The notes: a model not told the origin generated them from the letters alone. 64,000 bases of DNA from an uncultured Candidatus Binatia bacterium (GCA_965214905.1 OZ243984.1:2518003-2582002), one strand, 5' to 3'. Positions 21,789-55,214 are shown, counted from the first letter of the stretch. Numbers and translations: made by a program.

Positions 21789-21829
21789 GGGGTGTCACGG
21801 GTCCGTGCAGGCCGTAAAGCCGCTGATCG

Positions 21830-22480
21830 CTACTCCCCGGTTTCGAACACTCCCCGAGAGAGCCGCGCCAGCATGGGTGGAGCGCTGGTGATCTCTGGAA
21901 GGCAGTGGTCGAAAAGTGAACATTCCGAACATTGGGGCTTGTGGATCGCTTTAGGGACCGTTTCCTGTTCGATGAGCCGGTGCACGGCTTCAATGGCCTG
22001 CTCGGTGAGGCACCGCAGTTCTTGGGTAAATTCCACCTCTCGGCGGCGCTTGCTCTTGGCGTGGAAGATGGCGCCTCTCGAAACCTCGATCCCGAACATT
22101 TCTTCCAGGCACAGAGCCTGGGCGCAAAGCTGGGCGTCGTCGTTGTCGAACTTGCGGCGTTTGCCTTTCTTGAACTCAACCGGGGTCAGCGAGCCATCGG
22201 AACGACGTTCGACAATGTCGCACTTGCCGCTGAGCCCGAGTCGGTCCGACCACACGGGCAAGGCACGCAACAGGGTCACACCCCTGACGGTTTCATAGCC
22301 GGAAGTATCGGTCTGTTCGTGAACGCTATCGCCGATAACCGTGTGCTCGTTGGCATCTCGCCATCCTTCGACTGCCTTCAACGCTGCCCTGCGATGGCAG
22401 TAGAGGAAATCGTTGATGAGCGAGAGGGGAAACATCTCCCGCTCGACAGTGTCTGAAGAGCCGTCGGGGCAACGCTGCAT
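21830..22480 (-). CDS. cas4: CRISPR-associated exonuclease Cas4 (RecB-like nuclease with C-terminal Cys cluster)
   Basis: The product reads …FLYCHRRAALKAVEGW… and carries a C-terminal CSECSLFDHC Fe-S Cys motif. An alternative start exists at 22435. Confidence 0.85.
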   Translation of the reverse strand: MQRCPDGSSDTVEREMFPLSLINDFLYCHRRAALKAVEGWRDANEHTVIGDSVHEQTDTSGYETVRGVTLLRALPVWSDRLGLSGKCDIVERRSDGSLTPVEFKKGKRRKFDNDDAQLCAQALCLEEMFGIEVSRGAIFHAKSKRRREVEFTQELRCLTEQAIEAVHRLIEQETVPKAIHKPQCSECSLFDHCLPEITSAPPMLARLSRGVFETGE

Positions 22481-22481
22481 T

Positions 22482-22886
22482 CTATTTTGCGGTTTTACCG
22501 GCGTCGAACCGCATTCTTCTGCCGGCCTTTAACAGAACAGCCGGCAATCGCTTCAGTTCCTCACTGCGTGGGTCCACCTCGAACCCACCGGATTCCAGGG
22601 CGGTAACGCCAAGTAACGGCTCCACCCCCTCATCGCCGTACACGACGGTCCCGCCAACGACTTCTCCTTGAAACTCGATCTCGGCGATGGTGATGTCCAA
22701 GGCGACGGACTTGCCATCCGCAAGCACGTACTCTCGGCGGCCTCTCGGTTCAAGCCCGATTGCTTCGAGGCAGGCTCTCGGTACAAGCGAGTCGAACGCA
22801 CCGGTACCAACTAGAAACTTGCTGGTCCAGCTCCGGCTCGGGTTCGCGGGATTGCGGATCGTGACATCAACGTAAGTCGCGCCCAT
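22482..22886 (-). CDS. hypothetical small protein, retropepsin-like (clan AA aspartyl-protease-like) fold candidate, translationally coupled to cas4
   Basis: The product is 134 aa: FLVGTGAFDSLVPRACLEAIGL…ADGKSV…LLGVTALESGGFEVDP. This resembles retropepsin-like domains, but with GTGA in place of DTGA. Its stop (22482-22484) lies 1 nt from the cas4 ATG (22478-22480). Confidence 0.45.
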   Translation of the reverse strand: MGATYVDVTIRNPANPSRSWTSKFLVGTGAFDSLVPRACLEAIGLEPRGRREYVLADGKSVALDITIAEIEFQGEVVGGTVVYGDEGVEPLLGVTALESGGFEVDPRSEELKRLPAVLLKAGRRMRFDAGKTAK

Positions 22887-23042
22887 TCTGGTTCCCTTCG
22901 GGTTGGTTACGGCTTCACCGAACCCCGTTGCGGTTGCAATCGCATTCTACGCCGACCTGAAATGACCGGAGAAAGGGTTGCTGAAACAGAACGAGGCAGC
23001 ATCGGGATCAGCGATACTTGGCCTTGAAATTCCAGATCAGCG

Positions 23043-25391: not shown

Positions 25392-26320
25392 TAGCCATCG
25401 AGCGCATAGTCTTGGTACTTGCCGCAGTTCGAGAATGTTCTACTGGACCCGAATCGGACAGGGTTGTCCTTGATTGCGTCCCATGTCGGAATTTCGTAGT
25501 CGTCCAGCGATTCGGAGGGCTTGTCCATCGCCGTCTTCTTGCGAGGCGTCAGGGCATCCAACAGGGCGAAATCGGACAACGAACCGCGTCGCTCATTGTG
25601 GGTGAAGACGTGAGCGTGAATGATCTCAACCATTGTTCGGACAACGGAGCGGGTGTGCGGATAAGCCAGAGGCAAAAGCTCAAGCATCAGCTTAACGTCG
25701 GTCTCCGTGCATCCCGTCTTGTGGGCCAAACCGGGATTGACAAAGAAAGGAACCGTATAAACTCCATGTTTGACGACGCGAAACGCCATGGGCGCCATGC
25801 CGCGGTCCTTGCCTGTTTCAACGCCTGATTTGCTCGTCCATGTTGAATACTCGATGTCTATCGGAGCCACGGAAACGCCGACACCAAAGTGTGCCACCCC
25901 GGTACGGATTGTGTCTCCACTGCCTTCTTCGAGGAAGGTGTTCCCAAACAGGCGTCCGTCCCAATAGGCTTCCTTGAACCCTTGAGAAAGTCGATGGTTA
26001 CCTTCCTTTTCCATGAGCTTGCGAATTTCTTCGCGGTTTCGCCCTCGCTGCTCGAGAATCTTAAATTCGTCGTCCGCCTGAATCTCCAACTTTTCTTTGA
26101 CTTCCTGCCACACCACGCCCTCCTTTTCCAGAACAAGATCGCGGAGCTTCCGTTTGAAAGACACCGGCGAGATCTCGCCCTTACCGTCCGGGCGCTGGCG
26201 AGGGGAGCCTTCGCGCTCGGGGTCGCCGTTGGGGTTGGATTTCCGTACCTCGATCACAAGCAGGCCAGTGATGCGAGGGACTTGCGTTTCGGTCCTGGTA
26301 CCGTGTTCCTGTGTGGACAT
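25391..26320 (-). CDS. cas7: Cas7 (Csd2/Cas7c family, type I-C)
   Basis: The product reads MSTQEHGTRTETQVPRITGLLVIEVRKSNPNGDPEREGSPRQ…PVSFKRKLRDLV, matching the Csd2 N-terminal signature NPNGDP…. Confidence 0.8.
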   Translation of the reverse strand: MSTQEHGTRTETQVPRITGLLVIEVRKSNPNGDPEREGSPRQRPDGKGEISPVSFKRKLRDLVLEKEGVVWQEVKEKLEIQADDEFKILEQRGRNREEIRKLMEKEGNHRLSQGFKEAYWDGRLFGNTFLEEGSGDTIRTGVAHFGVGVSVAPIDIEYSTWTSKSGVETGKDRGMAPMAFRVVKHGVYTVPFFVNPGLAHKTGCTETDVKLMLELLPLAYPHTRSVVRTMVEIIHAHVFTHNERRGSLSDFALLDALTPRKKTAMDKPSESLDDYEIPTWDAIKDNPVRFGSSRTFSNCGKYQDYALDG

Positions 26321-26324
26321 AGGG

Positions 26325-28514
26325 TTAGGCTTCCGTTTCGGTTTTCGGATGATCGGCGAGGTAGCCGAGAAGGAGTTGAGCCTTGTGAACGTCTTCCATG
26401 CGATCCGGCAGTTCGGCAACGTCGATGTGGCGTTCACGCTCGCCCATCTGACGAACAAACCAGTGAATCAATCCTGCGTCCTTACCCGAGTAGGTGTCTG
26501 CCCAGCCTTTGTACGGCCGGACGCGCTCGGCGAGGCGAGCAAGCGCCGACAGCGGATTGTCGAGGGCAAGGTTGAACAGTGAGTTTCCAAGCAACTCGGA
26601 TGGCGCTTCGACGTCGCCATTTTTTCGCTTCTGATCCGGGGTACGAACCCACTTGCAGTACTGCAGATGCAGGCCGTCGGCCAAGGCTAGCAGTCGCCCT
26701 ATCTGATAGGTCGAGTCTTGCATAAACTGATCCTTTGAATGTCCGAGTTGTTGAAGGAGAATGCCGATAAGCGAGATCGTCTTCCTGCACTGCCAACGAA
26801 CGTTGTCGCTCAGGTCTTTCCAACGACAACTGGTCTTGACACTTCCAAGGCCGACAAGAACCGGAGATGTCCGATGCAAAAGGAGCGAGAAACACAGGCA
26901 TGTCTTGTTCCGTGATATCGGCCCATCGGAAAAGAACAGGTCGTAGGCATCCGATGTGGTGACAGCACGTTGAAAGGATGAGGCGAAGCCGTTTTTGGCA
27001 TCTGATCTCCAGACACGATTAATGACTGACGTCAGGTCGAGCGGATGAGGCACAAAATGAGACTTCCAGTCGGCCTTCATTTCTTTCTTGTTAGGAAACC
27101 AGATGGAAACAGGCGGTGTGTTGGCGGCTCCAGTCTTCCATTCCTGAGCCGCGCGAATGATGTCCTGCACACGGAACTGGCGATGCAGGCTGACTTGCTT
27201 GCGTCCCTTGTCGATTTCACATAGAGTCAGAAGTCGAGCCGTCAAGTTCGGTTGTTCCTGTAATTTGCCCTCAAGGGCGTTAAGCACGGACCGTGTTCGT
27301 TCGGCAAAATCCGCATCTCCAAATCTTTGTGCCTCGCCACCGAATAGTTCGGCCAACTGTTCCTGGAAGTCTGGCGCTTGCTCCAGGTAGGCGATCAGCA
27401 GGTCGTTCCGGTTTCTGCCTGGAATTCCTCGCCATGTCAAACCTTCCTCTCTCTTCTCGTCGCCGAGGTAAAGCAGTGCGTTGTTCATTCTCTGTACGAC
27501 CGGTGTAGATGCCGGAAACTGCATGGATCCCTTCAGTCCGTAGCGACGAAGTGCCTTGATCTCGTCCGTGTTTACAGAGAAAAGCTTCACGTCACCGAGG
27601 TTTGCGACTTTGGGGGTCGGGTATTTGTCTTGCAAGAGACCTTGGTTTCCAAATGCGTCCAATTCACCCTGGTCGGATTGAGGTTTGACTGTATCGTGTC
27701 TGAGCATGAACTCGTTTATTGCCTTGCTGGTGTCCGGGTGAGCGACGGCTTTATGATTGAGATCGATCTTGGCCACATCGAAATATACGGGTTGGTTGGT
27801 GTTCTTAGCGTTCTTATCTTGCTTGGTCTTTTCCGACCAGTAGGCGTCCGAGCCCAGCTTGGCCATGCGCTTTCTCCAGTCGAGCACACCGAACAAGCCT
27901 TGTTGTATCAGGCAGAGATCCTCGCGATCAGCGGTTGCTGACGTGTGGAGAAAGGTGTCGGTCAGATTCCGGCTGAACCGATTCAGATCGAGTTCGGTGC
28001 GCCCCGCTACGTCCAGCAGTCGTGTAAAGTTGCTCAGTCCCGGTGTTGCCGTGCCAAGCATTTTTTGAAGCTCGTGAACCAACTTGACGACCGAGCGCCT
28101 GAACTGGCTGCACTGGGAGCTCGTGAACGGACGCGGCTGGGATAACTCGACCATCTTCGCAAGGGCATTGCAAATCTGCCTGGTCGGTGGGTTCTTTTCC
28201 TTCCACAAACCACAAAGCCGTTCCAAAACGGGGGTTAATCGGGTAGATGTGGATGTCGAATCAAGATGGCGAAGCGGTGTTGGGATGTTGAGTCCGGGAA
28301 AGCTGGAGCCCGATGAGCCGTGCTCCACGCGAAATAGACGGGCCGCCTTGTCACCTGGAACGAACTCCACTTCGGCTGGTCCGGCATCGTCGTTCAGTCG
28401 CACGATCAACAATTTCCTGGTTTTTGCCATCGGCTTGATACGCGGGTGTCGCGATGGCGGAACGATGCCCACTCGATCCATAGCCTGCGAGACGAGATAG
28501 AGCTCGTTAAGCAT
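26325..28514 (-). CDS. cas8c: Cas8c (Csd1-like large subunit)
   Basis: The product is 729 aa. It sits between cas5 and cas7 with the overlapping and coupled junctions typical of Cascade operons. Confidence 0.7.
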   Translation of the reverse strand: MLNELYLVSQAMDRVGIVPPSRHPRIKPMAKTRKLLIVRLNDDAGPAEVEFVPGDKAARLFRVEHGSSGSSFPGLNIPTPLRHLDSTSTSTRLTPVLERLCGLWKEKNPPTRQICNALAKMVELSQPRPFTSSQCSQFRRSVVKLVHELQKMLGTATPGLSNFTRLLDVAGRTELDLNRFSRNLTDTFLHTSATADREDLCLIQQGLFGVLDWRKRMAKLGSDAYWSEKTKQDKNAKNTNQPVYFDVAKIDLNHKAVAHPDTSKAINEFMLRHDTVKPQSDQGELDAFGNQGLLQDKYPTPKVANLGDVKLFSVNTDEIKALRRYGLKGSMQFPASTPVVQRMNNALLYLGDEKREEGLTWRGIPGRNRNDLLIAYLEQAPDFQEQLAELFGGEAQRFGDADFAERTRSVLNALEGKLQEQPNLTARLLTLCEIDKGRKQVSLHRQFRVQDIIRAAQEWKTGAANTPPVSIWFPNKKEMKADWKSHFVPHPLDLTSVINRVWRSDAKNGFASSFQRAVTTSDAYDLFFSDGPISRNKTCLCFSLLLHRTSPVLVGLGSVKTSCRWKDLSDNVRWQCRKTISLIGILLQQLGHSKDQFMQDSTYQIGRLLALADGLHLQYCKWVRTPDQKRKNGDVEAPSELLGNSLFNLALDNPLSALARLAERVRPYKGWADTYSGKDAGLIHWFVRQMGERERHIDVAELPDRMEDVHKAQLLLGYLADHPKTETEA

Positions 28515-29157
28515 AGAACAGCATTCCCTTATGGACTTTGATCCCCTGGCTGAAGCTTGGCTTTACGCGACCTTGCTGCGGGCGGTCGAATACCATGCGC
28601 AACATCGATGGCAGCTCATGACTCTCGGTCTCGCACACCCGTGTTCCCGAGCGAAACGGTCCTACGTAATCCGGGACGAATTCCTTCCATCCAAGGCAGG
28701 GCGTACAAAACCACCGGCCGTTCCCCAATCGACGGTTGAAGACATCCTGAAAGGCATGGGGCGAACATTGACCGTCCGGTGCCTTTGCTCGTTCGCCGTT
28801 TGGCCCGCGATTCCAGTCCACCTCGGCGTAGAGCCGATAGCAAACGTTCACCAGGACCATAGCGAATAACTGGAACGATGCGCGTTTTCTTCTTGCGTCA
28901 GATGCACGCAAGGGTCCTCCATAGTTGGTAACGTAATGATGAAACTGGACCGGCCGACAAATTTCTACCTTGACCGGCCTCACGTTGACGGATTTCCAAC
29001 GAAGGACGGACTCGAAGATGCCTTTCGCGGCGCTGAAGGTGGGCGCTACATAGGAAACCGGGGAGGAACCGGTATCCGGCCGGGTCCACATCGCGGTTGG
29101 GCCGGAGATTTCGAATTGGACTGCGTAGGATTTCATCGTTTCTCCATATGCATGCAT
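28507..29157 (-). CDS. cas5: Cas5 (Cas5c/Cas5d-like, type I-C)
   Basis: The 216-aa product reads …FEISGPTAMWTRPDTGSSPVSYVAPTFSAAKGIFESVLRWKSV…, matching the Cas5d N-terminal pattern. No cas6 is present in the locus. Confidence 0.75.
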   Translation of the reverse strand: MHAYGETMKSYAVQFEISGPTAMWTRPDTGSSPVSYVAPTFSAAKGIFESVLRWKSVNVRPVKVEICRPVQFHHYVTNYGGPLRASDARRKRASFQLFAMVLVNVCYRLYAEVDWNRGPNGERAKAPDGQCSPHAFQDVFNRRLGNGRWFCTPCLGWKEFVPDYVGPFRSGTRVCETESHELPSMLRMVFDRPQQGRVKPSFSQGIKVHKGMLFYA

Positions 29158-29205
29158 TTTTACCAGTCCGGTTGGAAACGCTCAACGCGCCTCTCATGAT
29201 GGCGT

Positions 29206-46825: not shown

Positions 46826-48727
46826 CTATCCTTTCGGGTACCCCAAACGGCTCAGGTCCTCCCTGATCTCGTCGAGTATGGCCGGGTCGTCGATGGTGGC
46901 CGGGGGTTTGTACGGCGTGCCGTCCGCCATGCTTCGCACCGTGCCCCGGAGGATTTTGCCGGACCGCGTCTTGGGCAGCCGCTTCACCAGCAGGGCCTGC
47001 TTGAAGTCCGCCACCGGGCCGATCTGTTCGCGCACGAGGCTCACCAGCTCCGGCACCAGCGCTTTCTCCGTGGTCTCGACCCCCGCCTTGACCACGATCA
47101 GCCCCAGCGGCAGTTGCCCCTTGAGTGCGTCGGCCACCCCGAGCACGGCGCATTCCGCGACCGCCGGATGGGCGGCGAGCACCTCCTCCATGGCGCCGGT
47201 GGAGAGCCGGTGTCCGGCGACGTTGATGACGTCGTCGATGCGCCCCATGATCCACAGGTAGCCGTCTTCGTCGCAATAACCCCCGTCCGAGGTGACATAG
47301 TAGCCCGGATGCTGCTCAAGGTAAGCCTTGCGATAGCCCTCCTCGTTGTTCCACAGCGTCGGCAGGCACCCCGGCGGCAACGGCAGCTTCACCGTGATGC
47401 TGCCCATCTCGCCGCGGGGCAGTTCCCGCCCCCCGTCGTCCAGCACCCGGACGTCGTAACCCGGCACCGTCCGGGTGGGTGAGCCGGGCTTCACCGGGAG
47501 CGGCTCGATGCCCATGCAGTTGGCCGCGATGGGCCAGCCGGTCTCGGTCTGCCACCAGTGGTCGATGACCGGCGCCTGCAGGAGGTCCCGAGCCCACACC
47601 AGCGTGTCGGGATCGCAACGTTCGCCGGCGAGGAACAGGGTCCGGAAGCGGCTCAGGTCGTGCTTCTTCACGTATTCGCCTTCGGGGTCCTCCTTCTTGA
47701 TGGCGCGGAACGCGGTGGGCGCGGTGAACAGCACGCTGACGCCGTGCTGGCTGAGGACCCGCCAGAAAGCTCCGGGGTCCGGAGTCCCCACGGGCTTGCC
47801 TTCGTAGAGGACGGTGGTGCAGCCCTTCAGCAGCGGCCCGTAGACGATATAGGAATGGCCCACCACCCAGCCCACGTCGGAGGCCGCCCAGTACACCTCG
47901 CCGGCATCCACGTCGTAGATGTTCTTCATGCTCCACTTGAGCGCCACGGCATGGCCGCCGTTGTCGCGCACGATGCCCTTGGGCTGCCCCGTGGTGCCGG
48001 AGGTGTAGAGGATGTACAGCGGGTCGGTGGCGGCCACGGAGACGCACGGAACCGGGCCGGCCGCGGCCACCGCGTCGTTCCAGTCCACGTCCCGACCGTC
48101 CACCATGGACGCCCGCGCCTGGGGCCGTTGCAGCACCAGGCAGGCCGCAGGCTTGTACTGCGCCAGCCGGATGGCCTCGTCCAGCAGCGGCTTGTACTCG
48201 ATGACGCGGTTGACCTCGATGCCGCAGCTCGCGCTCACGATGACCTTGGGCCGGGCGTCGTCGATCCGCGTCGCGAGCTCGTTGGCGGCAAAGCCGCCGA
48301 ACACCACGGAGTGGACCGCGCCGAGACGGGCGCACGCCAGGATGGCCACCACGGCCTCGGGTACCATGGGCATGTAGACGATCACCCGGTCGCCCACCCC
48401 CACGCCGTGATTCCGAAGCGCGCCGGCGAAGGTCGCCACCGCGTCCCGCAACTCCAGGTACGTAAAGACCTTGACGCTGTCCGTCACCGGGCTGTCGTGG
48501 ATCAACGCCGGCCGGCCGCCGTTGCCCTGTTCCACGTGCACGTCCAGGGCGTTGTAGCAGGTGTTGAGGGCGCCGCCGGTGAACCACCGGTAAAACGGCG
48601 GCCGCGAGTCGTCCAGCACCCGGTCCCAGCGCTTGTCCCAGTGAATGTCCCTGGCGGCCTCGGCCCAGAAACCATCCGGGTCGTTCAGCGCCCTTTGGTA
48701 AACCTCGGTGTAACCCTTGTCGCTCAT
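46826..48727 (-). CDS. AMP-forming acyl-CoA synthetase (acetyl/propionyl-CoA synthetase-like)
   Basis: The product begins MSDKGYTEVYQRALNDPDGFWAE… and contains an AMP-binding motif, YTSGTTGQPKG. Confidence 0.85.
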   Translation of the reverse strand: MSDKGYTEVYQRALNDPDGFWAEAARDIHWDKRWDRVLDDSRPPFYRWFTGGALNTCYNALDVHVEQGNGGRPALIHDSPVTDSVKVFTYLELRDAVATFAGALRNHGVGVGDRVIVYMPMVPEAVVAILACARLGAVHSVVFGGFAANELATRIDDARPKVIVSASCGIEVNRVIEYKPLLDEAIRLAQYKPAACLVLQRPQARASMVDGRDVDWNDAVAAAGPVPCVSVAATDPLYILYTSGTTGQPKGIVRDNGGHAVALKWSMKNIYDVDAGEVYWAASDVGWVVGHSYIVYGPLLKGCTTVLYEGKPVGTPDPGAFWRVLSQHGVSVLFTAPTAFRAIKKEDPEGEYVKKHDLSRFRTLFLAGERCDPDTLVWARDLLQAPVIDHWWQTETGWPIAANCMGIEPLPVKPGSPTRTVPGYDVRVLDDGGRELPRGEMGSITVKLPLPPGCLPTLWNNEEGYRKAYLEQHPGYYVTSDGGYCDEDGYLWIMGRIDDVINVAGHRLSTGAMEEVLAAHPAVAECAVLGVADALKGQLPLGLIVVKAGVETTEKALVPELVSLVREQIGPVADFKQALLVKRLPKTRSGKILRGTVRSMADGTPYKPPATIDDPAILDEIREDLSRLGYPKG

Positions 48728-48777
48728 TGGCGTCTCCCCGAATGCGAGATCCTCGTTGATGGTAATCGCGATATGCT

Positions 48778-49173
48778 TCACTTTTTATCTGCTGCTCCGT
48801 CGTTGTCCGTTCTCAGGCGCTCATATGTCGTCCGGATCATCTCCTCAAGGGCAACCGCTCCTTCGGAATTCAGGCGGGGATCGCGATGGATGATGGAGGA
48901 GATTTGAGCAAGGGGGCTAGCTGCCCCGAACTGTTCACTAGTGTCCGCGCGCATGAAGTGGTCTGCGGACATCCCGAGCCACGCGGTCAGGGCGGCCAAG
49001 CTGTTGACGTCGGGCCGGCGGCCTTGAGACAGGCGCGTAAGCGTTGATGCACTGACGCCCGACTCCGCTGCTACATCCTTCCAGGTGAGGCGCCGAGAGC
49101 GGCGCTCGGAGTCCATCGCGGCATGCAGCGCGCCGACATCGAACCGATCTACTCGATTTTCCGGTGGTTTCAC
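48778..49173 (-). CDS. XRE-family helix-turn-helix transcriptional regulator
   Basis: The product reads …LTWKDVAAESGVSASTLTRLSQGRRPDVNSLAALTAWLG…, a Cro/C1-type HTH. It is divergent from the Ubl operon. Confidence 0.75.
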   Translation of the reverse strand: MKPPENRVDRFDVGALHAAMDSERRSRRLTWKDVAAESGVSASTLTRLSQGRRPDVNSLAALTAWLGMSADHFMRADTSEQFGAASPLAQISSIIHRDPRLNSEGAVALEEMIRTTYERLRTDNDGAADKK

Positions 49174-49204
49174 ACTTGAAATCCTCCGTCACTATCGCTA
49201 CATT

Positions 49205-49232
49205 GCATAATAGCAATCAGCAGCCAGATTTG
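49205..49232. promoter_or_regulatory. near-palindromic operator-like site (ATTGC-N6-GCAAT) in divergent promoter region
   Basis: The sequence reads ctacattgcataatagcaatcagc, with a GGGG ribosome-binding site before the ATG at 49247. The region is AT-rich. Confidence 0.45.
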
Positions 49233-49246
49233 AAAGGGGTGACGAC

Positions 49247-49516
49247 ATGGCTACTACCGAGAACGCGAAGGACCGGATCCACGACGGGAAGATCGAGATT
49301 GCGGTCAACGAGAAGCCGGTGGTGCTTGACGGTCCGAAGCAGACGGGTGCAAGCATCAAGAAGGCGGCGACCGAGCAGGGCGTGAACATCAAGGAGGACT
49401 TCGTGCTGAGCATCGAGCTCGGCGGCGGGAAGACGCGTCTCGTCGGTGACGACGAGTTCATCGAGGTGAAGCCCGGTGAGCGATTCCTCGCGATCGAGAA
49501 CGACGACAACTCATGA
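49247..49516 (+). CDS. ubiquitin-like beta-grasp protein of the 'Multiubiquitin' type (single repeat)
   Basis: The 89-aa product reads KIEIAVNEKPVVLDGPKQTGASIKKAATEQGVNIKEDFVLSIELGGGKTRLVGDDEFIEVKPGERFLAIE. It is the first gene of an operon with E2-like and JAB-E1 genes. Confidence 0.6.
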   Translation: MATTENAKDRIHDGKIEIAVNEKPVVLDGPKQTGASIKKAATEQGVNIKEDFVLSIELGGGKTRLVGDDEFIEVKPGERFLAIENDDNS

Positions 49517-49905
49517 GCTCGATTGTTCCTGCGGTGACGGAGGCCATCGAGGAGATCCGCCGCACGTTCGACTCGTGTGTCGTGGAGGTGGTCCCCGATG
49601 GTTCCGGGGGGGCAGAGGTGGTGGTGAGGGGCATCCCGATGGGATGCCCCTATGTGCAGCCCGAGGTCTGGTTAGGCTTCCGGATGACCTTCCAGTATCC
49701 GTATGCCGATGTGTATCCGCACTTCACGAACCCGGAGTTGGTTCGCGCGGACGGCGCTACCCTCGGAGGCGGCTTCGGAACGGCGACATTTCAGGGTCAA
49801 CCGGCCATCCAGATCTCTCGTCGATCAAACAGGCTGAACCCCGAGACGGACACCGCGGTGTTGAAGTTGTTGAAGGTCCTCCGCTGGATGAAGGAGCCGA
49901 CATGA
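49513..49905 (+). CDS. E2/UBC-like protein (prokaryotic E2 family candidate)
   Basis: The 130-aa product has a central YPHF (HPN-like) flap motif and Cys in GCPY. Its stop overlaps the next start (ATGA) and its start overlaps the Ubl gene stop. Confidence 0.5.
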   Translation: MSSIVPAVTEAIEEIRRTFDSCVVEVVPDGSGGAEVVVRGIPMGCPYVQPEVWLGFRMTFQYPYADVYPHFTNPELVRADGATLGGGFGTATFQGQPAIQISRRSNRLNPETDTAVLKLLKVLRWMKEPT

Positions 49906-51323
49906 ATCCTTGGCGGCTGACGATTCCCGAGGGGCTGTACGCCGAGCTTCATGGCCACCTGTTTCCCGGAGATGGCGACGAACACGGAGCGGTGATCCTT
50001 GCGGGCACTTGCGAGTCCGATCGTGGCCTTCGGCTCATTGCGCGGGAACTCCATCTGGCGAAGGACGGTGTGGACTACGGACCCGGGAAGCGTGACTATC
50101 GCATGCTGAAGGCCGAGTTCATCCAGGGTAAGATCCTCCGTGCGAGAGACAAGCGATTGGCGTACCTCGCCATTCACAATCATGGCGGGACTGACTCGGT
50201 GGCGTTCTCGGGACCCGACATGGCGTCGCACGAACGGGGCTACCCCGCGCTACTCGACATCGCCCGGGGCATGCCGGTCGGCGCATTGGTCTTCGCCCGG
50301 TCCGCAGCGGCTGGCGACCTGTGGTTTCCCGGCTACAACCGTGCCGCACTGAGCCATGCGACGGTCATCGGGCCTCGACGACGGATGCTGTTCCCCAAGC
50401 CGGAGCGCAACGCGGCGGTGGTGGGCATGTATGACCGTCAGAGTCGCCTGTTCGGGGACGCGGGTCAGGAACTGTTGCGACGCACGCGGGTGGGCATTGT
50501 CGGCCTCGGCGGAGCTGGGTCCATACTGGCAGAGCTCCTGGCGCGGCTCGGTGTGGGAGAGTTCGTTCTCGCAGATCCCGATAGGGTGGAGGCGACGAAC
50601 CTGCCCCGCCTTGTCGGGGCTCGGCTACGCGATGCGGTTGTCCCTTCATGGGTGCCGAAGGCCATCGCCGACCGATTGCGACGGCCCAAGGTCAGGGTGG
50701 CGTTACGAAACGTCCGTCGTGCGAACCCCAATGTGCAGGTCGAGACGATGGCGCGTGACTTCCTCGAGGAGGAGGTGGCGGCTCGCTTCACGGACTGTGA
50801 CTTCCTCTTCCTTGCCGCGGATACGATGAGCGCGCGGCTTCTCTTCAACGCGATCGTGCACCAGTACGGGATCCCTGGAATCCAGGTCGGCGCAAAGATT
50901 CCGGTTGAAGGGGACGGGACGGTCGGGGACGTGTTCTGCGTCAGCCGCATGGTGACGCCGGAGCAAGGATGTCTATGGTGTAACGGGCTCATCAGCCCGG
51001 CTCGGTTGCAGGACGAGGCCGTGCCCGAGGCAGCCAAACGCGGATACGCGTACGTAGATGATCCGGGAGTGGCAGCTCCGAGCGTAGTTACCATGAATGC
51101 AGTCGCCTGCGCACATGCCGCTGACGACTTCCTGTTCCACCTGACGGGTCTCAAGTACGCGGACGCCGAGACCGCATGGTTTCGATGGAACTCCCGTCGC
51201 GGGGTGGCGGGTTACGACGTGCCGCGGTCCGACGCCGGTTGCATCGAGTGTTCGTTAACTGCGAGTAGCCGTTGGGGCATGGGTGACAATGGGAGCCTTC
51301 CGACGAAACCGCGCATGCGCTAG
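49902..51323 (+). CDS. JAB/JAMM metallopeptidase - E1 (ThiF/MoeB-like) fusion protein with C-terminal CxxC pairs
   Basis: The N-terminus carries a JAMM motif, E…HNHGGTDSVAFSGPD. The middle carries an E1 Rossmann motif, VGIVGLGGAGSILAELLARLGVGEFVLADPDRVE. The C-terminus carries CLWC…CIEC cysteine pairs. Confidence 0.75.
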   Translation: MNPWRLTIPEGLYAELHGHLFPGDGDEHGAVILAGTCESDRGLRLIARELHLAKDGVDYGPGKRDYRMLKAEFIQGKILRARDKRLAYLAIHNHGGTDSVAFSGPDMASHERGYPALLDIARGMPVGALVFARSAAAGDLWFPGYNRAALSHATVIGPRRRMLFPKPERNAAVVGMYDRQSRLFGDAGQELLRRTRVGIVGLGGAGSILAELLARLGVGEFVLADPDRVEATNLPRLVGARLRDAVVPSWVPKAIADRLRRPKVRVALRNVRRANPNVQVETMARDFLEEEVAARFTDCDFLFLAADTMSARLLFNAIVHQYGIPGIQVGAKIPVEGDGTVGDVFCVSRMVTPEQGCLWCNGLISPARLQDEAVPEAAKRGYAYVDDPGVAAPSVVTMNAVACAHAADDFLFHLTGLKYADAETAWFRWNSRRGVAGYDVPRSDAGCIECSLTASSRWGMGDNGSLPTKPRMR

Positions 51324-52906
51324 AGGCGCTTCTCCCTGCATTCGTACAACGCGTCGTTCTCGATCAGGTCCAGTTGCTCTGGATCCTCCTGCGCATCGAT
51401 ATCCTTGGTGAACAGCAGACCTGGAAGATGCAGCACTAGCAGGCCGTCGCCGTCTCTTCCGGTAGAAGTCGCATCGAGAACCGTATGGCCGAAGATTCTT
51501 CGCAAGCCTCGGGATGAGTGGTTGTAGGAGTCGATCGTCGCGATCTCGGTGATCCAGGTGAAGTGCGGAAGGTGAAGATCGAGCAAGGCGTCCTTGAGAT
51601 CATCACAGGCCGTTCCGCCAAGGATGTAGCGGCGGTACCCCGCGGCAGACGTCAAGTACGTTCGCAGCACGATCTGGTTGGCTCTGTGCGCTGCCTGCAG
51701 GTCGTCCAGCAACCGTGCATTGACGGAAAATCCCCATTTCTCGAGCAGCGGACGCATCGTTGGCATGCCGCGAAAGGCTTCGTCGATGCGGTCCCGAGCG
51801 GAGACTTCGGCGGTGGCGGCCGTCGAGAAGACCCTGGGCGACATGAGAGCGACTGCGAAGGTCGCGTGTTGGCAAACATTCAACTCGGTGAGACCAGCGG
51901 GCGTATCACGCCTGATCGTCTCCTCGGCGAAGGAGTATGTCGTGCTGGCCTTGTTGTCCATTGGCAGCCATCTGTATGGGCCACTCTGATCGTCGTGGAC
52001 GATGTAGGCGGGTACGTAGTCGATTGCCTGTTGCGTTGGATGCCGCTGTCTGGCCAACACGCGCCCGATGACGGTGACCGCGTGACCCAGCCCTCCACCG
52101 AACTGTAGTCCAAGGATTACCGGAATACCGGATTCGACATACGGCAGGATGTCGCGGTCGATCGCCGTGCCACGGAAACAAAGCGGTTGATAACCCGCTT
52201 CACTGATAGCACGAATCATCCGTTCGGAGGTCAGGAAGTCCGAACCTGCGGGAAGGGAGACGCCCTCGTGCGCGGTCGTCGGTCTGGCGAGTCGCGTGAG
52301 GTCCGCCACAGAAACCCAGTCGTAGTTGTACCGGGCGTGCATGTGTCGCATGCCGGCCCAGATCGCAACCTGGGCGCATGCGCCCACACGGGCGTCTTGT
52401 TGGAGGAAAGCCGTGCCGCCGACTTCAAGGTCGACGCCAAGCAGGTTCGCCTTGAAGTCGGCGCGGCAGGTAATCGTTGCCTCTCTGTCGAAGCCGCCGC
52501 TGACCCGCGCAGTGAGCACCGTTCTGCCGATCGGAGCGGTTGGCAAGGGACGAACGACGCAGAAGCCACAATAGGCTTTGCCTGCAGCGGCCTGAAATTC
52601 GCGCAGCCCTTCTGTTGTTAGCGGCCGCTTGAGCAGAGGGGACATGTCGATAGAGAAGAAATGGATGCGCTTGCAGTGGCGTTGGTGTGTCCGGAACGTT
52701 CGAGCATGGAATTCCACGTAGTCCGCCGAGTAGTCGCGATCGATATAGGGATCTTCGATTACGTACGACTTCGCCTGGAGTACCTTGAGATGACGAACTG
52801 TGTTGCATACGACTGGGAGGTTCCCACTCCCACCACTGAGCGTTTCAGTCAGGCGAGACCATGTGTCCTCACCGTCAAGCGGTTCGACGGTGTATTCGAT
52901 CTTCAT
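51320..52906 (-). CDS. hypothetical protein (528 aa), convergent with Ubl operon; possible Cys-His-Asp triad
   Basis: No confident family could be assigned. The motifs GACAQVAIW … GHAVTVIG … VHDDQSGPY are suggestive of a papain-like arrangement. G+C is lower than in the host genes. Confidence 0.4.
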   Translation of the reverse strand: MKIEYTVEPLDGEDTWSRLTETLSGGSGNLPVVCNTVRHLKVLQAKSYVIEDPYIDRDYSADYVEFHARTFRTHQRHCKRIHFFSIDMSPLLKRPLTTEGLREFQAAAGKAYCGFCVVRPLPTAPIGRTVLTARVSGGFDREATITCRADFKANLLGVDLEVGGTAFLQQDARVGACAQVAIWAGMRHMHARYNYDWVSVADLTRLARPTTAHEGVSLPAGSDFLTSERMIRAISEAGYQPLCFRGTAIDRDILPYVESGIPVILGLQFGGGLGHAVTVIGRVLARQRHPTQQAIDYVPAYIVHDDQSGPYRWLPMDNKASTTYSFAEETIRRDTPAGLTELNVCQHATFAVALMSPRVFSTAATAEVSARDRIDEAFRGMPTMRPLLEKWGFSVNARLLDDLQAAHRANQIVLRTYLTSAAGYRRYILGGTACDDLKDALLDLHLPHFTWITEIATIDSYNHSSRGLRRIFGHTVLDATSTGRDGDGLLVLHLPGLLFTKDIDAQEDPEQLDLIENDALYECREKRL

Positions 52907-52960
52907 TGCCTGTCCGACACCCGGAGGGCCTGTATCCTTCGGTGAAGGACCATCGACGGC

Positions 52961-53155
52961 TCATCGCCAAGCGAACTTCTGGTCATCCTGCGCCGCCTTG
53001 ATTGCCTCTTCTTCAATCCTGTCGATCTCCTTCATCGCCTTCTCGCTGATCGTGAGCGTGAAGTCCACCTCGCGGGCCGGGATCGTCTTTCTCCTGCCAT
53101 GGCGAGGGGGCGTTCGAGTCGTCTTCGCTTTGTCACGAGTCTCCCGTGATGGCAT
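52961..53155 (-). CDS. small RHH/CopG-like protein (64 aa) upstream of the 528-aa gene
   Basis: The product reads MPSRETRDKAKTTRTPPRHGRRKTIPAREVDFTLTISEKAMKEIDRIEEEAIKAAQDDQKFAWR. An AGGAGA ribosome-binding site precedes the ATG. Confidence 0.45.
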   Translation of the reverse strand: MPSRETRDKAKTTRTPPRHGRRKTIPAREVDFTLTISEKAMKEIDRIEEEAIKAAQDDQKFAWR

Positions 53156-53459
53156 GTGTTTCTCCTGGGTCGTGCGACATGGGCACGGAGGCAAGGGACA
53201 TTGTGGGGACAGTGCTCTGTCACGGCGCTGATGGACATTAACACAATCCGGTTGTGGCGGCGAACGAGTTGCGCCGCTCGCTGTCCCGCCTCGCCGACAA
53301 CAAGAACTCCCGCATGGTTCCACGGTTTGTTCAGGACATCACGCTGGTGTGGTGTCCTTCGGTATGGTAGGACTCCGTTCGGGTGCGTGACCGGACTCCG
53401 GTGACAGGACTCCGGACTCCGCGATACCCGTGTCGGAGATACCACACGACGAACCACCC

Positions 53460-55214
53460 ATGAGCTACAAGACCATCCATCACCAGGCCGACGTGCTGGT
53501 CATCGGCGGCGGCGCGGCCGGCGCCATGGCGGCCATCCGCGCTCGGGAGGCGGGAGCGGACGTGCTGCTGGTGGACAAGTCCGTGTTCGGCCGGAGCGGC
53601 TGCGCGGCGCTGGCTTCCGGGGCCTACATCACCTACATGCCGGGCGACGACATCATGATCCATCTCGGCGGCCGCGGCGTGCTCACCAACCAGACCAAAG
53701 CCATCGAGGCGATCTACGCCACCCACGACGTGCTCAAGATCCTCGACGGCTGGGGTGTGAAGTTCGTCAGGGAGCGCGGCGAGATCTGGCGCGGCAAGGG
53801 CGGGTCCGGGGCCGCCGCCAGCGGCGGGCTGGCCGCGGGGCTGGTGGGCGGCGGCACCGCGATGATGAAGGTGGTGCGGGGCGTGGCCTTGCGCGCGGGC
53901 GTCCGGGTGCTCAACCGGGTTTCGGTCACCGACCTGCTGACCTCGGACGGCAGGCACCCCACCGGCGGCCGCGTGGTGGGCGCGCTGGGGGTCTCCGGAC
54001 GGGAGCGCGAGGTCCACGTGTGCGAGGCCAGGTCCGTGGTCATGTGCGCGGGCGGTTTCAACTTCGGCTACAAGCAGCCGGGACAGTGGTTCGCCGGCAT
54101 GCCCCTCAACATCACCAGCGACGGCGTCGCCATGCAGCTCAGGGCCGGCGCGGTGATGGGCAACATGGCGGTGGGCAGCAAGTACCTCCAGACCATGGAG
54201 TTCATGTGCGCTCCCGGCATCGAGCACTTCACCACCATGGGCACCAGCTATTTCAACCGCCTGGGGGAAGACGTGATGAAGCGGTTCTCGGAATCCGAGG
54301 CCGAGTTCACCCGGCGGCTGTCGCTGGGACAGGCGGTGGCGCTGGAGATGCTGGAAGGCAAGGGCCCCGTGTACCTCGACTGCACCCGGCTCCCGCCGGA
54401 GAACATCCGGCTGCTGTACGAAGTCATCCCCATCATCATGAACACCTTCGAGGCTGCCGGATACGAGGTCAGCAAGGAGCGGATTCCCTATCTGCCGGTG
54501 CTGGCGGCCACCTACGGCTCCAGCCACGGCGGCGGCGCGGTGGTGGACGACCGGTGCAGGACCTCGCTGCCGGGTCTGTTCGCCGCCGGCGCCAGCAGCG
54601 ACGGCATGAACATCTCGCCGAACCTGAACCTCTCCTGGTGCATGGTGCTGGGCTGGTGGGCCGGGCTGCACGCCGCGGACTACGCCAGGAGTGCAGACCC
54701 CGGCGGGGGCGCCGTCGGGCGGCAGGTGGAGTCGCTCACCCGGAGCGCCACCCGGTACCTCAAGCCGGAGGGGATCGCCTTTGCCGAGATCCACGGCAGG
54801 GCCGCCGACCTGCTGCACGAACTGGGGGTCATCCTCAGCGACGAGAAGATCGCCCGGGTGCGGCAGGGGCTCATGGAGATCCTGGAAACCTATGATGACG
54901 TCATGGCGAAGGACCCCCACGACCTGGTGAAGGTCCTGGGGCTGCGGAACTCCATCGAGGCCCTGACCGCGGTGCTGGACTACCTGCTGCACCGGCAGGA
55001 AAGCCGCGGTTCGGTGATCAATCGCGATCATCCCGAGACCGACAACGAGAAGTGGCTGGTGTTGAGCAAGTCGATCATCGAGAACGGCGCGCTGAAGATC
55101 TGGGACGAGCCCATCCCCCGCGACGAGTTCTACGTGCGCTACCGGCCGAGGCCCGGGAAGGCCATGCACCCCTTCTTCAAGATCGCCGGTCGGACGGTGG
55201 AGGCGGGGGAGTAG
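53460..55214 (+). CDS. FAD-binding oxidoreductase, fumarate reductase/succinate dehydrogenase flavoprotein family
   Basis: A DVLVIGGGAAGAMAA dinucleotide-binding motif is present. The product is about 585 aa. Confidence 0.75.
   Translation: MSYKTIHHQADVLVIGGGAAGAMAAIRAREAGADVLLVDKSVFGRSGCAALASGAYITYMPGDDIMIHLGGRGVLTNQTKAIEAIYATHDVLKILDGWGVKFVRERGEIWRGKGGSGAAASGGLAAGLVGGGTAMMKVVRGVALRAGVRVLNRVSVTDLLTSDGRHPTGGRVVGALGVSGREREVHVCEARSVVMCAGGFNFGYKQPGQWFAGMPLNITSDGVAMQLRAGAVMGNMAVGSKYLQTMEFMCAPGIEHFTTMGTSYFNRLGEDVMKRFSESEAEFTRRLSLGQAVALEMLEGKGPVYLDCTRLPPENIRLLYEVIPIIMNTFEAAGYEVSKERIPYLPVLAATYGSSHGGGAVVDDRCRTSLPGLFAAGASSDGMNISPNLNLSWCMVLGWWAGLHAADYARSADPGGGAVGRQVESLTRSATRYLKPEGIAFAEIHGRAADLLHELGVILSDEKIARVRQGLMEILETYDDVMAKDPHDLVKVLGLRNSIEALTAVLDYLLHRQESRGSVINRDHPETDNEKWLVLSKSIIENGALKIWDEPIPRDEFYVRYRPRPGKAMHPFFKIAGRTVEAGE

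Follow-up and report, generated by a model that had tools for sequence, protein, structure and literature searches.

Bacterial ubiquitination-like systems form a new class of immune system, from which eukaryotic ubiquitin signalling probably descends. To our knowledge, a C-terminal glycine on the ubiquitin-like protein (Ubl) is a rule obeyed by every characterised Ubl pathway. The Type I Bub operon (formerly 6E.1/DUF6527) of Citrobacter sp. RHBSTW-00271 encodes BubAB, BubCD and BubE (PMC11601596; PDB 9ea4, 9eae, 9eav), and the system was reconstituted and crystallised in 2024 (PMC11601596). The JAB peptidase of classic Bub cleaves the BubAB (Ubl-E2) fusion and exposes the C-terminal Gly. No operon protected E. 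coli from phage in the Bub study (PMC11601596). Bil, encoded by BilABCD operons, is an experimentally shown anti-phage system (PMC11601596); its E1 is a multidomain IAD-AAD-CYS enzyme, and a catalytic Cys is present in both the Bil E1 and the Bil E2.

Here we report the analysis of a six-gene cassette of 4.4 kb within a window of 64 kb, i.e. the whole stretch of DNA that was analysed. The cassette is probably a mobile, self-regulated protein-conjugation system of the 6E/Bub family. A preliminary description of the locus had regarded the pairing of a JAB-E1 fusion with a Mub-type Ubl as essentially uncharacterised, which no longer holds for the pairing in general, in view of the work on Citrobacter Bub, and does hold for the glycine-less branch represented here. 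It had also counted relatives of both Bil and Bub type among systems shown to be anti-phage; this is correct for Bil and not for classic Bub.

Layout of the cassette

All of the genes named in the preliminary description were found, at the following positions:

48778-49173, minus strand, XRE regulator gene (131 aa), divergent from the Ubl operon
49247-49516, plus strand, Ubl gene (89 aa), product ending ...IENDDNS; Pfam PF14452
49513-49905, plus strand, E2-like gene (130 aa), UBC fold, BubB-like
49902-51323, plus strand, JAB-E1 gene (473 aa), JAB/JAMM peptidase and ThiF-type E1 adenylation domain
51320-52906, minus strand, papain-like peptidase gene (528 aa), convergent with JAB-E1
52961-53155, minus strand, small gene (64 aa), first of a two-gene unit with the 528-aa peptidase

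The ATGA start/stop overlaps described earlier are present at both junctions, between Ubl and E2 (49513-49516) and between E2 and JAB-E1 (49902-49905), and the stop codons of JAB-E1 and of the 528-aa gene share the palindrome CTAG at 51320-51323. These ORFs are real genes and not chance ORFs, because homologous clusters are numerous for the E2 (817), the 528-aa protein (442) and JAB-E1 (more than 120 at 79-92% identity). A 615-aa ORF starting at 49476 was rejected as the JAB-E1 gene, being a same-frame upstream extension of it; the gene in fact begins with the ATG at 49902. The lower G+C content attributed to the locus is real but modest (0.613 in the cassette against 0.669 and 0.659 in the flanks).

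Regulator and promoter region

The divergent XRE regulator was recovered above the Pfam cut-off of HTH_3 (23.8 bits, cut-off 23); HTH_31 scored 26.4 bits (cut-off 27, E 9e-6), and weak PADLOC matches were obtained to the N-terminus of RmrA and to capH. A helix-turn-helix at residues ~24-71 precedes a C-terminal extension of ~55 aa. The gene occupies the same position in ~36 loci at 60-88% identity, and in the sister clades the regulators are HTH and ImmA/IrrE pairs of the CapH/CapP kind. The shared intergenic region contains the only two promoter-like sites in 48600-53500, together with two operator-like sites:

49167-49182, strand not assigned, operator-like site 1, TTTCA-N4-TGAAA here; consensus ATTTCA-N3-TTGCAAT
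49176-49204, plus strand, sigma-70-like promoter of the Ubl-E2-JAB/E1 operon, TTGAAA-17-TACATT
49202-49217, strand not assigned, operator-like site 2 (ATTGCATAATAGCAAT), palindrome ATTGC-N6-GCAAT
49207-49234, minus strand, sigma-70-like promoter of the XRE gene, TTCAAA-16-TATTAT, with an extended -10 TG

Site 1 overlaps both the start codon of XRE and the -35 hexamer of the promoter that serves the Ubl operon; the hexamer positions of this promoter are kept in other loci. In an alignment of ~38 intergenic regions the arms of site 1 are at least 80% conserved and its spacer is free. Site 2, the near-palindrome pointed out in the preliminary description, overlaps the -10 hexamers of both divergent promoters. 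Exact ATTGC-N6-GCAAT, with a variable spacer, recurs in the same place in 19 other loci, and a shifted copy in L040 brings the number to 20. Most of the remaining loci differ from it by one base. Because the arms are conserved and the spacers free, the XRE protein is proposed to be a repressor binding two putative 16-bp operators, which would lie across the -35 element and the two -10 elements of the face-to-face promoters and would keep the operon off until a signal arrives.

The Ubl, E2 and JAB-E1 proteins

The Ubl consists of one Multi_ubiq beta-grasp domain (PF14452, E 4e-8, 33.8 bits against a gathering cut-off of 24.5), in agreement with the earlier reading of a single-repeat Multiubiquitin-type protein devoid of a C-terminal Gly-Gly. 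It ends in Asp-Asp-Asn-Ser (DDNS), encoded at 49502-49513, a tail that is invariant in more than 40 loci as well as in relatives with a JAB-E1 of 47-53% identity; no conserved Gly occurs in the last 12 Ubl residues across these loci and the distant relatives. We know of no E1 that activates a Ser-ending Ubl and therefore the conjugation chemistry may differ or be absent.

The 130-aa protein had been described as E2/UBC-like. Pfam matched it weakly to Prok-E2_E (E 0.007), and its AlphaFold2 model (pLDDT 88) retrieved BubB (9eae_C) as the sole Foldseek match in the PDB below 1e-3 (E 1.1e-5, TM 0.70), in support of the description. Residues S102-R103 are invariant and align with the Ser-Arg of WSRH in classic BubB-type E2s, making Ser102 the putative catalytic residue; the invariant columns of the homologue alignment hold no conserved cysteine at the E2 catalytic position. 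The motif is Ser-Arg-Arg (Ser-Arg-Lys in Mycolicibacterium) and S-x-H is absent, while Y68 occupies the classic Asp column with D66 and H70 nearby in the conserved DVYPHF motif. In Bub, S333A/H335A, affecting the Ser and His of the WSRH-type motif, abolished conjugation. As a separate observation, the His that accompanies the catalytic Ser in Type I Bub is missing from this E2, a point against Bub-like conjugation.

JAB-E1 comprises a JAB/JAMM peptidase domain (residues ~1-165) and a ThiF-type E1 domain (~175-473; Pfam ThiF E 1.7e-35). The JAMM residues are E27, H92, H94, S103 and D106, the last four within the motif HNHGGTDSVAFSGPD; the E1 part has a nucleotide loop (G201-S207), an arginine (R236), zinc-type cysteine pairs (C357/C360 and C447/C450) and a crossover-loop tyrosine, Y384. 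The only cysteines in or near the crossover loop are the zinc-type pair C357-x2-C360. The best phmmer match in the PDB was Citrobacter BubCD 9ea4 (E 6.8e-27), in which query residues 5-412 align with chain residues 8-400 over both domains. In this alignment E27, H92, H94, D106 and R236 fall on BubCD E28, H91, H93, D104 and R227, and the Y382/Y384 pair on Y370. MccB, which belongs to the ThiF family and acts on a C-terminal Asn, was also among the PDB matches, over the Rossmann part only. When relatives of 27-53% identity are aligned, the motifs, including Y384, prove invariant. The JAMM motif, the fusion to a ThiF/MoeB-type E1 and the CxxC pairs noted in the preliminary description are all present. 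A Pfam search proposed there for the JAB domain did not succeed, as the Prok-JAB model gave no match; the predicted JAB assignment rests on the BubCD alignment instead.

Distribution and mobility

The full six-gene cassette was found in 35 of 38 genome loci from ~nine phyla, and also on the Mesorhizobium plasmid pMspAR07b. Protein identity across these loci is ~55-90%, and the core proteins are ~80% identical across phyla. The Ubl, E2 and JAB-E1 genes occur together in every intact locus examined; the neighbourhood comparison suggested earlier shows that the three travel together and that the 528-aa gene accompanies them. Many of the hosts are sponge or coral symbionts, most of the genome matches being metagenome-assembled genomes with titles that point to such microbiomes; cultured Mesorhizobium and Bradyrhizobium also carry the cassette, which is clonable for that reason.

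DNA homology ends at the cassette edges (48788-53093), and the G+C content of the cassette across loci (0.52-0.67, mostly 0.57-0.67) is steadier than that of the flanks (0.43-0.71). The cassette is horizontally spread; the acquisition proposed in the preliminary description agrees with these edges, with the G+C content and with the cross-phylum distribution.

The 528-aa peptidase and its 64-aa partner

The 528-aa protein, in which a possible Cys-His-Asp triad had been seen, contains a central papain-like cysteine-peptidase domain (Q170, C177, H275, D305/D306). The ordered Gln-Cys-His-Asp set is invariant on a papain-like fold, the structural model being of low confidence around the catalytic helix, and the suspected triad is borne out. 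The same Gln...Cys...His...Asp order is found in clan CA C39/C70-type peptidases (the ComA peptidase domain, AvrRpt2) and in the Ubl proteases UfSP/ZUFSP, and the clan CA arrangement, with Cys at a helix N-terminus and His on a strand, is common to the 528-aa protein, which has no sequence-level membership of clan CA families. No curated Pfam peptidase family matched the window protein; marginal C39_2 or C70 matches occurred in 3 of 42 relatives (E ~2e-3 to 9e-3), and the family profile retrieved nothing from the PDB. The regions flanking the domain (N-terminal ~130 aa, C-terminal ~200 aa) have no recognisable relatives. The family comprises more than 3,600 representative clusters and carries no annotation.

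The 64-aa protein has a variable, basic N-terminus and a conserved C-terminal 43 aa ending ...KF(S/A)(W/L)R, and its gene is kept upstream of that of the peptidase, both in the cassette and in most of the distant members of the family. Pfam, NCBIfam, PADLOC and the PDB gave no match; hhalign against CopG (RHH) was weak (probability 19.7%, 18 columns, covering only the strand and first helix) and does not secure the RHH label used in the preliminary description.

In four unrelated kinds of system the pair lies directly against the 3' end of the final Ubl-operon gene, with stop codons that overlap or lie within a few bases: the DDNS-type operon, BilABCD (tail-to-tail with BilD), the classic BubAB-BubCD-BubE operon and a third Ubl system of GGSS-Ubl type. 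The adjoining Bil operon was identified by PADLOC profiles (BilD 2e-109, BilC 1e-61, BilB 7e-38, BilA 6e-32). None of the descriptions of Bil and Bub that were consulted mentions a peptidase plus small-protein component.

The pair would be a portable accessory of bacterial Ubl systems, and the peptidase most likely a Ubl-directed processing or deconjugating protease, or an effector restrained by its small partner. It is somewhat unlikely that the locus holds two independent neighbours, namely a Bub-like XRE-Ubl-E2-JAB/E1 unit and a self-contained pair with no biochemical link to the Ubl, such as a protease toxin together with its small antitoxin or repressor, or else an abortive-infection unit; the pair would then simply co-localise with defence genes. 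An upstream region of its own and an orientation opposite to that of the operon would suit an independent pair. The pair stands alone in ~25 of ~43 distant family loci with enough flank (in L045 as a two-gene islet between housekeeping genes), and it is absent from the DDNS-type operons of the sister clades in Rhizobium, Mycolicibacterium, Nostoc and M. huakuii; therefore it need not act on Ubl. Its junctions with the four kinds of Ubl operon count against independence, as does its retention in 35 of the 38 genome loci of the clade, and adjacency to rare E1 genes in ~40% of sampled loci is very unlikely to have arisen by chance. Within the favoured single cassette, the two convergent units may interfere with each other's transcription, because the shared CTAG stop leaves no room for a terminator.

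Biological role and proposed working

The genes present, their homology, conserved residues and folds, and the joint inheritance and horizontal spread of the cassette are results of the analysis, whereas all of the biochemistry and the biological role are inferred. Most likely, the cassette serves to defend its host against phages or other mobile elements. The flanks of some loci contain type I restriction-modification genes, an AbiEi antitoxin, transposases and recombinases; recognisable defence genes occur in a minority of flanks only, and the immediate neighbours in the window are metabolic genes. Conjugation that serves a stress response or host-association physiology, e.g. remodelling of own proteins in marine-invertebrate symbionts, is unlikely as an alternative: it would fit the predominance of sponge and coral metagenomes, the absence of reported phage protection for Bub, the metabolic genes in many flanks and the failure to find the JAB-E1 or peptidase markers on phage or viral contigs, but the accessory pair is common to the anti-phage Bil system (PMC11601596), restriction-modification, AbiE and transposase-family neighbours recur in several loci, sister clades have CapH/CapP-like regulators, and patchy cross-phylum spread with constant G+C is typical of defence cargo.

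Returning to a conjugating defence cassette, the three translationally coupled proteins would act as in Citrobacter Bub. The E1 domain would adenylate the Ubl C-terminus, the crossover-loop Tyr384 would take the Ubl as an oxyester, and the Ubl would pass to E2 Ser102 and then to a target lysine. This Tyr/Ser relay is proposed because of homology, the conserved residues and the lack of a cysteine at either catalytic position. Because the Ubl C-terminus is DDNS and not Gly, the activated carboxylate would be either that of the terminal Ser or that of a residue exposed through trimming by the fused JAB peptidase. That no protein is conjugated at all, the E1-like domain activating the Ubl tail for another fate (such as MccB/PaaA-type small-molecule or peptide chemistry at Asn/Asp, or a ThiS/MoaD-type sulfur carrier) or the cysteine-less E2 being an inactive binding module, is very improbable: the DDNS tail, the two CxxC pairs typical of MoeB/ThiF-type zinc sites, the MccB match and the original prediction, in 2006, of an inactive E2 in such operons (PMC1779556) would suit it, yet genes for ThiG, MoaE, a rhodanese or an exporter are absent from the cassette, the catalytic tyrosine and serine of Bub are invariant here, the E1 of the classic Synechocystis 6E operon, with a Ubl ending in Gly, also has both CxxC pairs, and a mobile, regulator-linked cassette is unlike cofactor pathways.

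Under the preferred reading of a conjugation system, the DDNS branch breaks the C-terminal glycine rule yet retains the Tyr and Ser that are catalytic in the oxyester-based Bub pathway, and can therefore be used to test directly how far E1/E2 chemistry stretches. More tentatively, and only as a possibility when both parts are taken together, the branch may activate and conjugate its Ubl via a non-glycine C-terminus, which could be Ser itself or an Asn/Asp exposed by JAB trimming, and the peptidase pair may be a hitherto unrecognised, portable third arm of bacterial ubiquitination-like immunity, common to Bil, classic Bub and the DDNS branch. Such an arm would act as an effector or as an eraser that sets the threshold of the system. 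If true, a non-glycine C-terminus with Tyr/Ser oxyester relays would be without precedent among Ubl pathways. The link of the peptidase to Bil and Bub points to a missing component, which would be either an effector or an off-switch.

Comparison with Bub and Bil

The cassette resembles Bub in its JAB-E1 fusion, homologous over both domains, with the JAMM residues, adenylation residues and crossover-loop Tyr kept; in a UBC-fold E2 with an aligned Ser-Arg and no catalytic Cys; in a Multi_ubiq beta-grasp Ubl; and in gene order (Ubl, E2, JAB-E1), with an HTH regulator upstream. Unlike in Citrobacter Bub, Ubl and E2 are separate genes, as they also are in the Synechocystis pSYSX 6E operon, so that the JAB has no Ubl-E2 fusion to cut. 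The Ubl ends in DDNS where the Bub Ubl ends in a conserved Gly, the E2 motif is S-R-R/K in place of S-R-H, the DVYPHF loop replaces PDMFY, and the two CxxC pairs of the E1 are absent from BubCD. Identity of the JAB-E1 to classic Bub-type JAB-E1 proteins on plasmids is only ~27-32%. BubE/DUF6527 is missing, and a papain-like peptidase and a 64-aa protein are added: an iterated search with two BubE seeds, which recovered L076, found no BubE in the 64-kb window or in loci L001-L043, and Pfam DUF6527 matched none of the cassette ORFs.

With BilABCD the cassette has in common the Ubl/E2/JAB/E1 conjugation logic and, in some Bil operons, a related peptidase and small protein lying tail-to-tail with the E1 gene. 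Bil differs in that its JAB has a gene of its own, and in that the Ubl of the Bil loci examined has a C-terminal Gly. Identity with BilABCD was rejected, as the PADLOC models for BilA, BilB, BilC and BilD matched no window protein (only Cap2-type E1-E2 models touched the Rossmann region), whereas L086-type proteins, the positive control, scored 1e-32 to 1e-109. On these comparisons the three plus-strand genes are a diverged, previously undescribed branch of the 6E/Bub family. JAB-E1/Mub-type Ubl conjugation is already known from Bub; what is new here is the glycine-less Ubl branch and the cysteine-protease pair linked to it.

Organisation and composition of the cassette

All of the genes announced in the preliminary description were located in both the ORF map and the raw sequence. 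They form a compact cassette of six genes in which an XRE regulator is divergent from a three-gene operon for a ubiquitin-like protein (Ubl), and a gene for a 528-aa putative peptidase, together with a small gene upstream of it (here, referred to as the pair), is convergent with that operon.

Genes of the cassette (ORF map and raw sequence)
48778-49173, minus strand, XRE regulator, 131 aa
49247-49516, plus strand, Ubl, 89 aa
49513-49905, plus strand, E2-like protein, 130 aa
49902-51323, plus strand, JAB-E1, 473 aa
51320-52906, minus strand, peptidase, 528 aa
52961-53155, minus strand, small protein, 64 aa

The ATGA overlaps of start and stop codons described for the Ubl/E2 and E2/JAB-E1 junctions were both seen, as were the JAMM motif HNHGGTDSVAFSGPD and the CxxC pairs of JAB-E1 (C357/C360 and C447/C450) and the palindrome ATTGCATAATAGCAAT of the XRE-Ubl promoter region (49202-49217). 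The genes for JAB-E1 and the peptidase finish in one palindromic CTAG (51320-51323), which gives TAG on each strand; there is no room for a terminator between the two. The cassette lies between an acyl-CoA synthetase-like gene and a flavoprotein gene, and its G+C is indeed lower than that of the flanks (0.613 versus 0.669 and 0.659).

A second low-G+C block of the window, at 16000-29200 (0.52-0.60), is a type I CRISPR-Cas locus; its three ORFs at 16056-19292 and a 729-aa ORF at 26325-28514 had no match in Pfam.

Features of the CRISPR-Cas locus
19837-20233, repeat array, period 72, 5.5 copies, consensus of the repeat-spacer unit starting GTTTCAATCCGCTCCCCCCGCCGAAGCGGGGGGAGAC
20709-21788, minus strand, Cas1
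21830-22480, minus strand, Cas4
23043-25391, minus strand, Cas3-like helicase
25391-26458, minus strand, Cas7
28507-29157, minus strand, Cas5d

The JAB-E1 and E2-like proteins

The ThiF domain of JAB-E1 was strongly recognised by Pfam (E 1.7e-35), and the best PDB relative of the protein was BubCD (9ea4) of the Citrobacter Bub (bacterial ubiquitination-like) operon, with an E value of 6.8e-27 over residues 5-412, a span that takes in peptidase and E1 parts alike. The zinc site and catalytic Glu of BubCD (E28, H91, H93, D104) align with E27, H92, H94 and D106 of JAB-E1, the adenylation Arg R227 with R236, and Y370, which is required for Ubl transfer in Citrobacter Bub (PMC11601596), is matched by a Y382/Y384 pair. 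E27, H92, H94, D106, R236, Y384 and both CxxC pairs were invariant in an alignment that brought in relatives of 27-53% identity (Chloroflexi, Rhizobium, Mycolicibacterium, Nostoc, Mesorhizobium huakuii and Synechocystis) and one metagenomic classic (Gly-ending) Bub locus. The Pfam Prok-JAB model matched neither the whole protein nor residues 1-173 alone, hence the JAB assignment rests on the BubCD alignment. Both the JAB and the E1 parts claimed for the 473-aa protein are thus borne out by this alignment, the ThiF match and the conserved motifs.

For the 130-aa protein, which had been described as E2/UBC-like, the Pfam Prok-E2_E match was marginal (E 0.007), but a confident AlphaFold2 model (pLDDT 88, pTM 0.85) agreed with the description: the only PDB chain below E 1e-3 was Citrobacter BubB (9eae_C; E 1.1e-5, probability 1.00, TM 0.70), followed by UEV and Ubc folds as weak matches. 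Invariant residues in 44 orthologues include D66, H70, S102, R103, R104 and S105, and no invariant cysteine was found among them. When the protein was aligned directly with diverse E2s using MAFFT, only four columns (G32, P63, S102 and R103) were invariant between the classic BubB-type E2s and those of relatives whose Ubl ends in Asp-Asp-Asn-Ser (the DDNS clade). S102-R103 coincides with the Ser-Arg of the classic W-S-R-H motif, the motif being S-R-R/K in the DDNS clade as opposed to S-R-H in classic Bub. The E2 of M. huakuii is without S105, which leaves S102 as the candidate catalytic serine.

The Ubl and its glycine-less end

The 89-aa protein was confirmed as a multiubiquitin-type Ubl by Pfam Multi_ubiq (E 4e-8; 33.8 bits against a cut-off of 24.5); its profile gave only a marginal match in the PDB, to the multi-ubiquitin protein of E. 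coli ZDHYS365. The reported absence of a C-terminal Gly-Gly also holds, as the protein ends in DDNS and no conserved Gly occurs in the last 12 residues. This ending was invariant in more than 40 loci and is kept in relatives with JAB-E1 identities of 47-53% (a Chloroflexi MAG, L040; Rhizobium, Mycolicibacterium and Nostoc); the M. huakuii Ubl ends in HEDS instead. Since DDNS is kept where the Ubl and E2 genes do not overlap, conservation acts at the protein level.

Two ideas bearing on this were rejected. A programmed frameshift fusing Ubl to E2 has no slippery site, and relatives with gaps of 8-14 nt still keep DDNS; the ATGA overlap as the cause of the terminal Ser fixes only the last base of the codon, and relatives with non-overlapping genes retain the residue.

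The N-terminus of DDNS-clade Ubls was observed to be variable, with the last domain and the DDNS ending constant (L003, L021, L029 and L036, near 7150-7615, as well as L033-L037 and L043; L numbers denote related loci fetched for comparison). Two beta-grasp repeats are present in some of these loci, and rhizobial members carry Gly/Asn/Pro-rich low-complexity tails that recall the N/G-rich ones described in other bacterial Ubls.

Conservation and spread of the cassette

A scan of one genome per species identified 38 cassette loci, and in 35 of these the six genes have the same order and orientation, with identities to the window proteins of 69-86% (JAB-E1), 57-79% (E2), 55-75% (peptidase) and 60-88% (XRE). 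The three operon genes therefore travel together, as does the 528-aa gene in the same 35 loci, though DDNS operons without the pair also exist. Hosts include Acidobacteriota, Chloroflexota, Alpha- and Gammaproteobacteria, Nitrospirota, Rhodothermales, Binatia, Thermodesulfobacteriota and 'Palauibacter'; judging from record titles, we take many carriers to come from sponge or coral microbiomes. Among cultured hosts, the cassette occurs in Bradyrhizobium spp. and on the conjugative Mesorhizobium plasmid pMspAR07b, on which the genes are annotated, in order, as HTH regulator, multiubiquitin domain-containing protein, hypothetical, ThiF family adenylyltransferase, hypothetical and hypothetical.

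DNA similarity of relatives to the window (63-79%) runs from about 48788 to about 53093 and stops at the cassette edges. Across loci the G+C of the cassette is 0.52-0.67 (mostly 0.57-0.67) against 0.43-0.71 in the flanks, being below the flanks in 18 of 39 loci and equal or higher in the remainder. The horizontal acquisition suggested earlier is in keeping with these edges, and the steady G+C of the cassette against varied flanks fits repeated horizontal transfer. No integrase, tRNA, Rfam family or terminal repeat was found at the borders, and there were no cassette matches in phage genomes and viral contigs. Ordinary genes were the majority among 136 flanking ORFs sampled from 20 loci, which also included transposases, recombinases and type I restriction-modification genes. 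Three sampled ORFs were extra ThiF-family genes beside the cassettes of L009 and L011 (about 4785-7260) and of one more locus; as no XRE gene was detectable in L009 and L011, the cassette may adjoin a second E1-type system there.

Regulatory region

Only two promoter-like sites were found in 4.9 kb, both within the 73-bp XRE-Ubl spacer and face to face. When about 38 such spacers were aligned, two 16-bp pseudo-palindromes with the consensus ATT(T/G)CA-N3-T(T/A)GCAAT were conserved and the spacers between were free. The first operator-like site takes in the start codon of XRE and the Ubl promoter's -35 hexamer; the second is the palindrome of the preliminary description and overlaps both -10 hexamers. 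As read from the sequence, this is the layout of a putative autoregulated repressor. The HTH protein stands alone in the cassette clade, and sister clades have an HTH and ImmA/IrrE pair, the same arrangement as the CapH/CapP-type pair present in 31% of Bub operons (PMC11601596).

The peptidase and the small protein

Neither the 528-aa nor the 64-aa protein was assigned to a family by Pfam, NCBIfam or PADLOC. An exhaustive HMMER search recovered 3,624 representative clusters related to the larger protein (2,692 below 1e-10), mostly of 500-560 aa. Q170, C177, H275 and D305/D306 are among the invariant residues in 42 family members with 22-57% identity, in agreement with the Cys-His-Asp triad earlier considered possible. 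In the AlphaFold2 model (pLDDT 67, poor across 160-238), C177 lies at a helix N-terminus with H275 and D305 on neighbouring strands, and a few relatives gave weak Peptidase_C39_2 or C70 matches. We conclude that the protein is a clan-CA-type cysteine peptidase with an unknown domain on either side.

The 64-aa protein has a basic, variable N-terminus and a conserved C-terminal region of 43 residues; profile comparison left the RHH fold once assigned to it possible but unproven. Small proteins of the pair show three C-terminal types, ...KF(S/A)(W/L)R, ...TKFAFR and ...(L/V)(L/M/F)G.

Association of the pair with Ubl systems

Relatives at 30-37% identity were compared in 80 metagenomic loci fetched by peptidase motifs alone. 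In about 11 of these the pair is tail-to-tail with a complete or partial anti-phage BilABCD operon, as identified by PADLOC (BilD 2e-109, BilC 1e-61, BilB 7e-38, BilA 6e-32), and the regulators are XRE and ImmA. In L077, L081, L086, L087, L090, L104, L107 and L111 (e.g. L086 5473-11240) the operons are bona fide BilABCD with XRE and ImmA/IrrE, and a peptidase relative with a small protein upstream of it lies tail-to-tail with BilD. The Bil descriptions in the literature searched make no mention of such an accessory pair. One further locus combines the pair with a classic Type I Bub operon, consisting of a BubAB fusion (…QTTEG|…WSRH), BubCD and BubE, and six or more have a third Ubl system with a three-domain Ubl ending in …RQGGSS. 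This third system (L082, L084, L085, L102, L114 and L115; e.g. L102 7654-10257) has a shorter E1-like ORF and no BubE, and its Ubl end, ...KFVSHVRQGGSS, is precursor-like, with Gly-Gly followed by two more residues.

The junction of the pair with the last Ubl-operon gene is always tight, either an overlap or a few bases. In Bil- and Bub-associated relatives it is as tight as in the cassette, but the tetranucleotide differs. The pair neighbours E1 genes at a frequency of about 40%, which cannot be chance because E1 genes are rare. In about 25 loci of L044-L123 it stands alone, e.g. as a two-gene islet between housekeeping genes (L045 5587-7605); such pairs, together with DDNS operons lacking one, show that the link with Ubl systems is facultative. 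The place after JAB-E1 is held by unrelated proteins with no similarity to the peptidase in L040 (9539-10603, 354 aa) and in a Nostoc plasmid (L127 6177-7865, 562 aa), which suggests that the downstream partners of DDNS-type operons are interchangeable. The accessory protease module seems not to have been described so far in the literature searched.

Proposed mechanism and role

What was observed directly is homology, fold, co-inheritance and the conservation of catalytic residues and operators; beyond this, a working scheme may be put forward. XRE would hold the operon off; after induction, the Ubl would be adenylated by the E1 and carried as an oxyester by Tyr384, then by Ser102, and finally be placed onto target lysines. 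The fused JAB, having no fusion protein to cut, may trim the DDNS tail or strip conjugates. The cysteine peptidase could be a Ubl-directed protease (for processing or as an eraser) or a guarded effector, and the convergent units might dampen each other without a terminator. Protein conjugation through the Tyr/Ser relay is slightly favoured, with the chemistry at a Ubl end other than glycine as its least certain part, and we regard functional coupling of the peptidase pair to the Ubl system as an even question. An anti-phage role is proposed tentatively, at somewhat less than even chance; defence is plausible in view of the defence-type regulators, the mobility of the cassette and a pair also found with Bil. 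Even for classic Bub, the authors of the Bub study observed no phage protection (PMC11601596).

Comparison with Bub and 6E systems

The relations to BubCD, BubB and Multi_ubiq show that the locus was rightly interpreted as a Ubl/E2/JAB-E1 conjugation-type operon with a regulator, and it is very probably a Bub-related system. The Bub family is defined by a Tyr-using E1, a Ser-using E2 (to which Type I adds His and Asp), a Ubl whose C-terminal Gly is conserved, a Type I BubAB fusion cut by the JAB domain, and BubE/DUF6527 as part of all operons (PMC11601596). Three of these five features are lacking here. Whereas the Bub Ubl ends in Gly and is fused as BubAB in Type I, the cassette Ubl is a gene of its own ending in DDNS; the E2 reads S-R-R/K and not the S-R-H of Type I; and a search that does recover BubE in L076 gave no homologue of it for the window and 43 related loci. 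The peptidase as a plain substitute for BubE was rejected, as L076 carries both.

Stand-alone E2 genes and a 'solo' Ubl were already noted as occasional in the 2006 description of class 6e (PMC1779556). The classic 6E operon of Synechocystis pSYSX likewise has separate Ubl and E2 genes but, unlike the cassette, it has a Ubl ending in …TTEG, WSRH in the E2 and a DUF6527 gene downstream. On the basis of the features that differ, the locus is a distinct branch of the 6E/Bub family, neither Type I nor Type II as defined, and represents a third, glycine-less branch of Bub-like systems.
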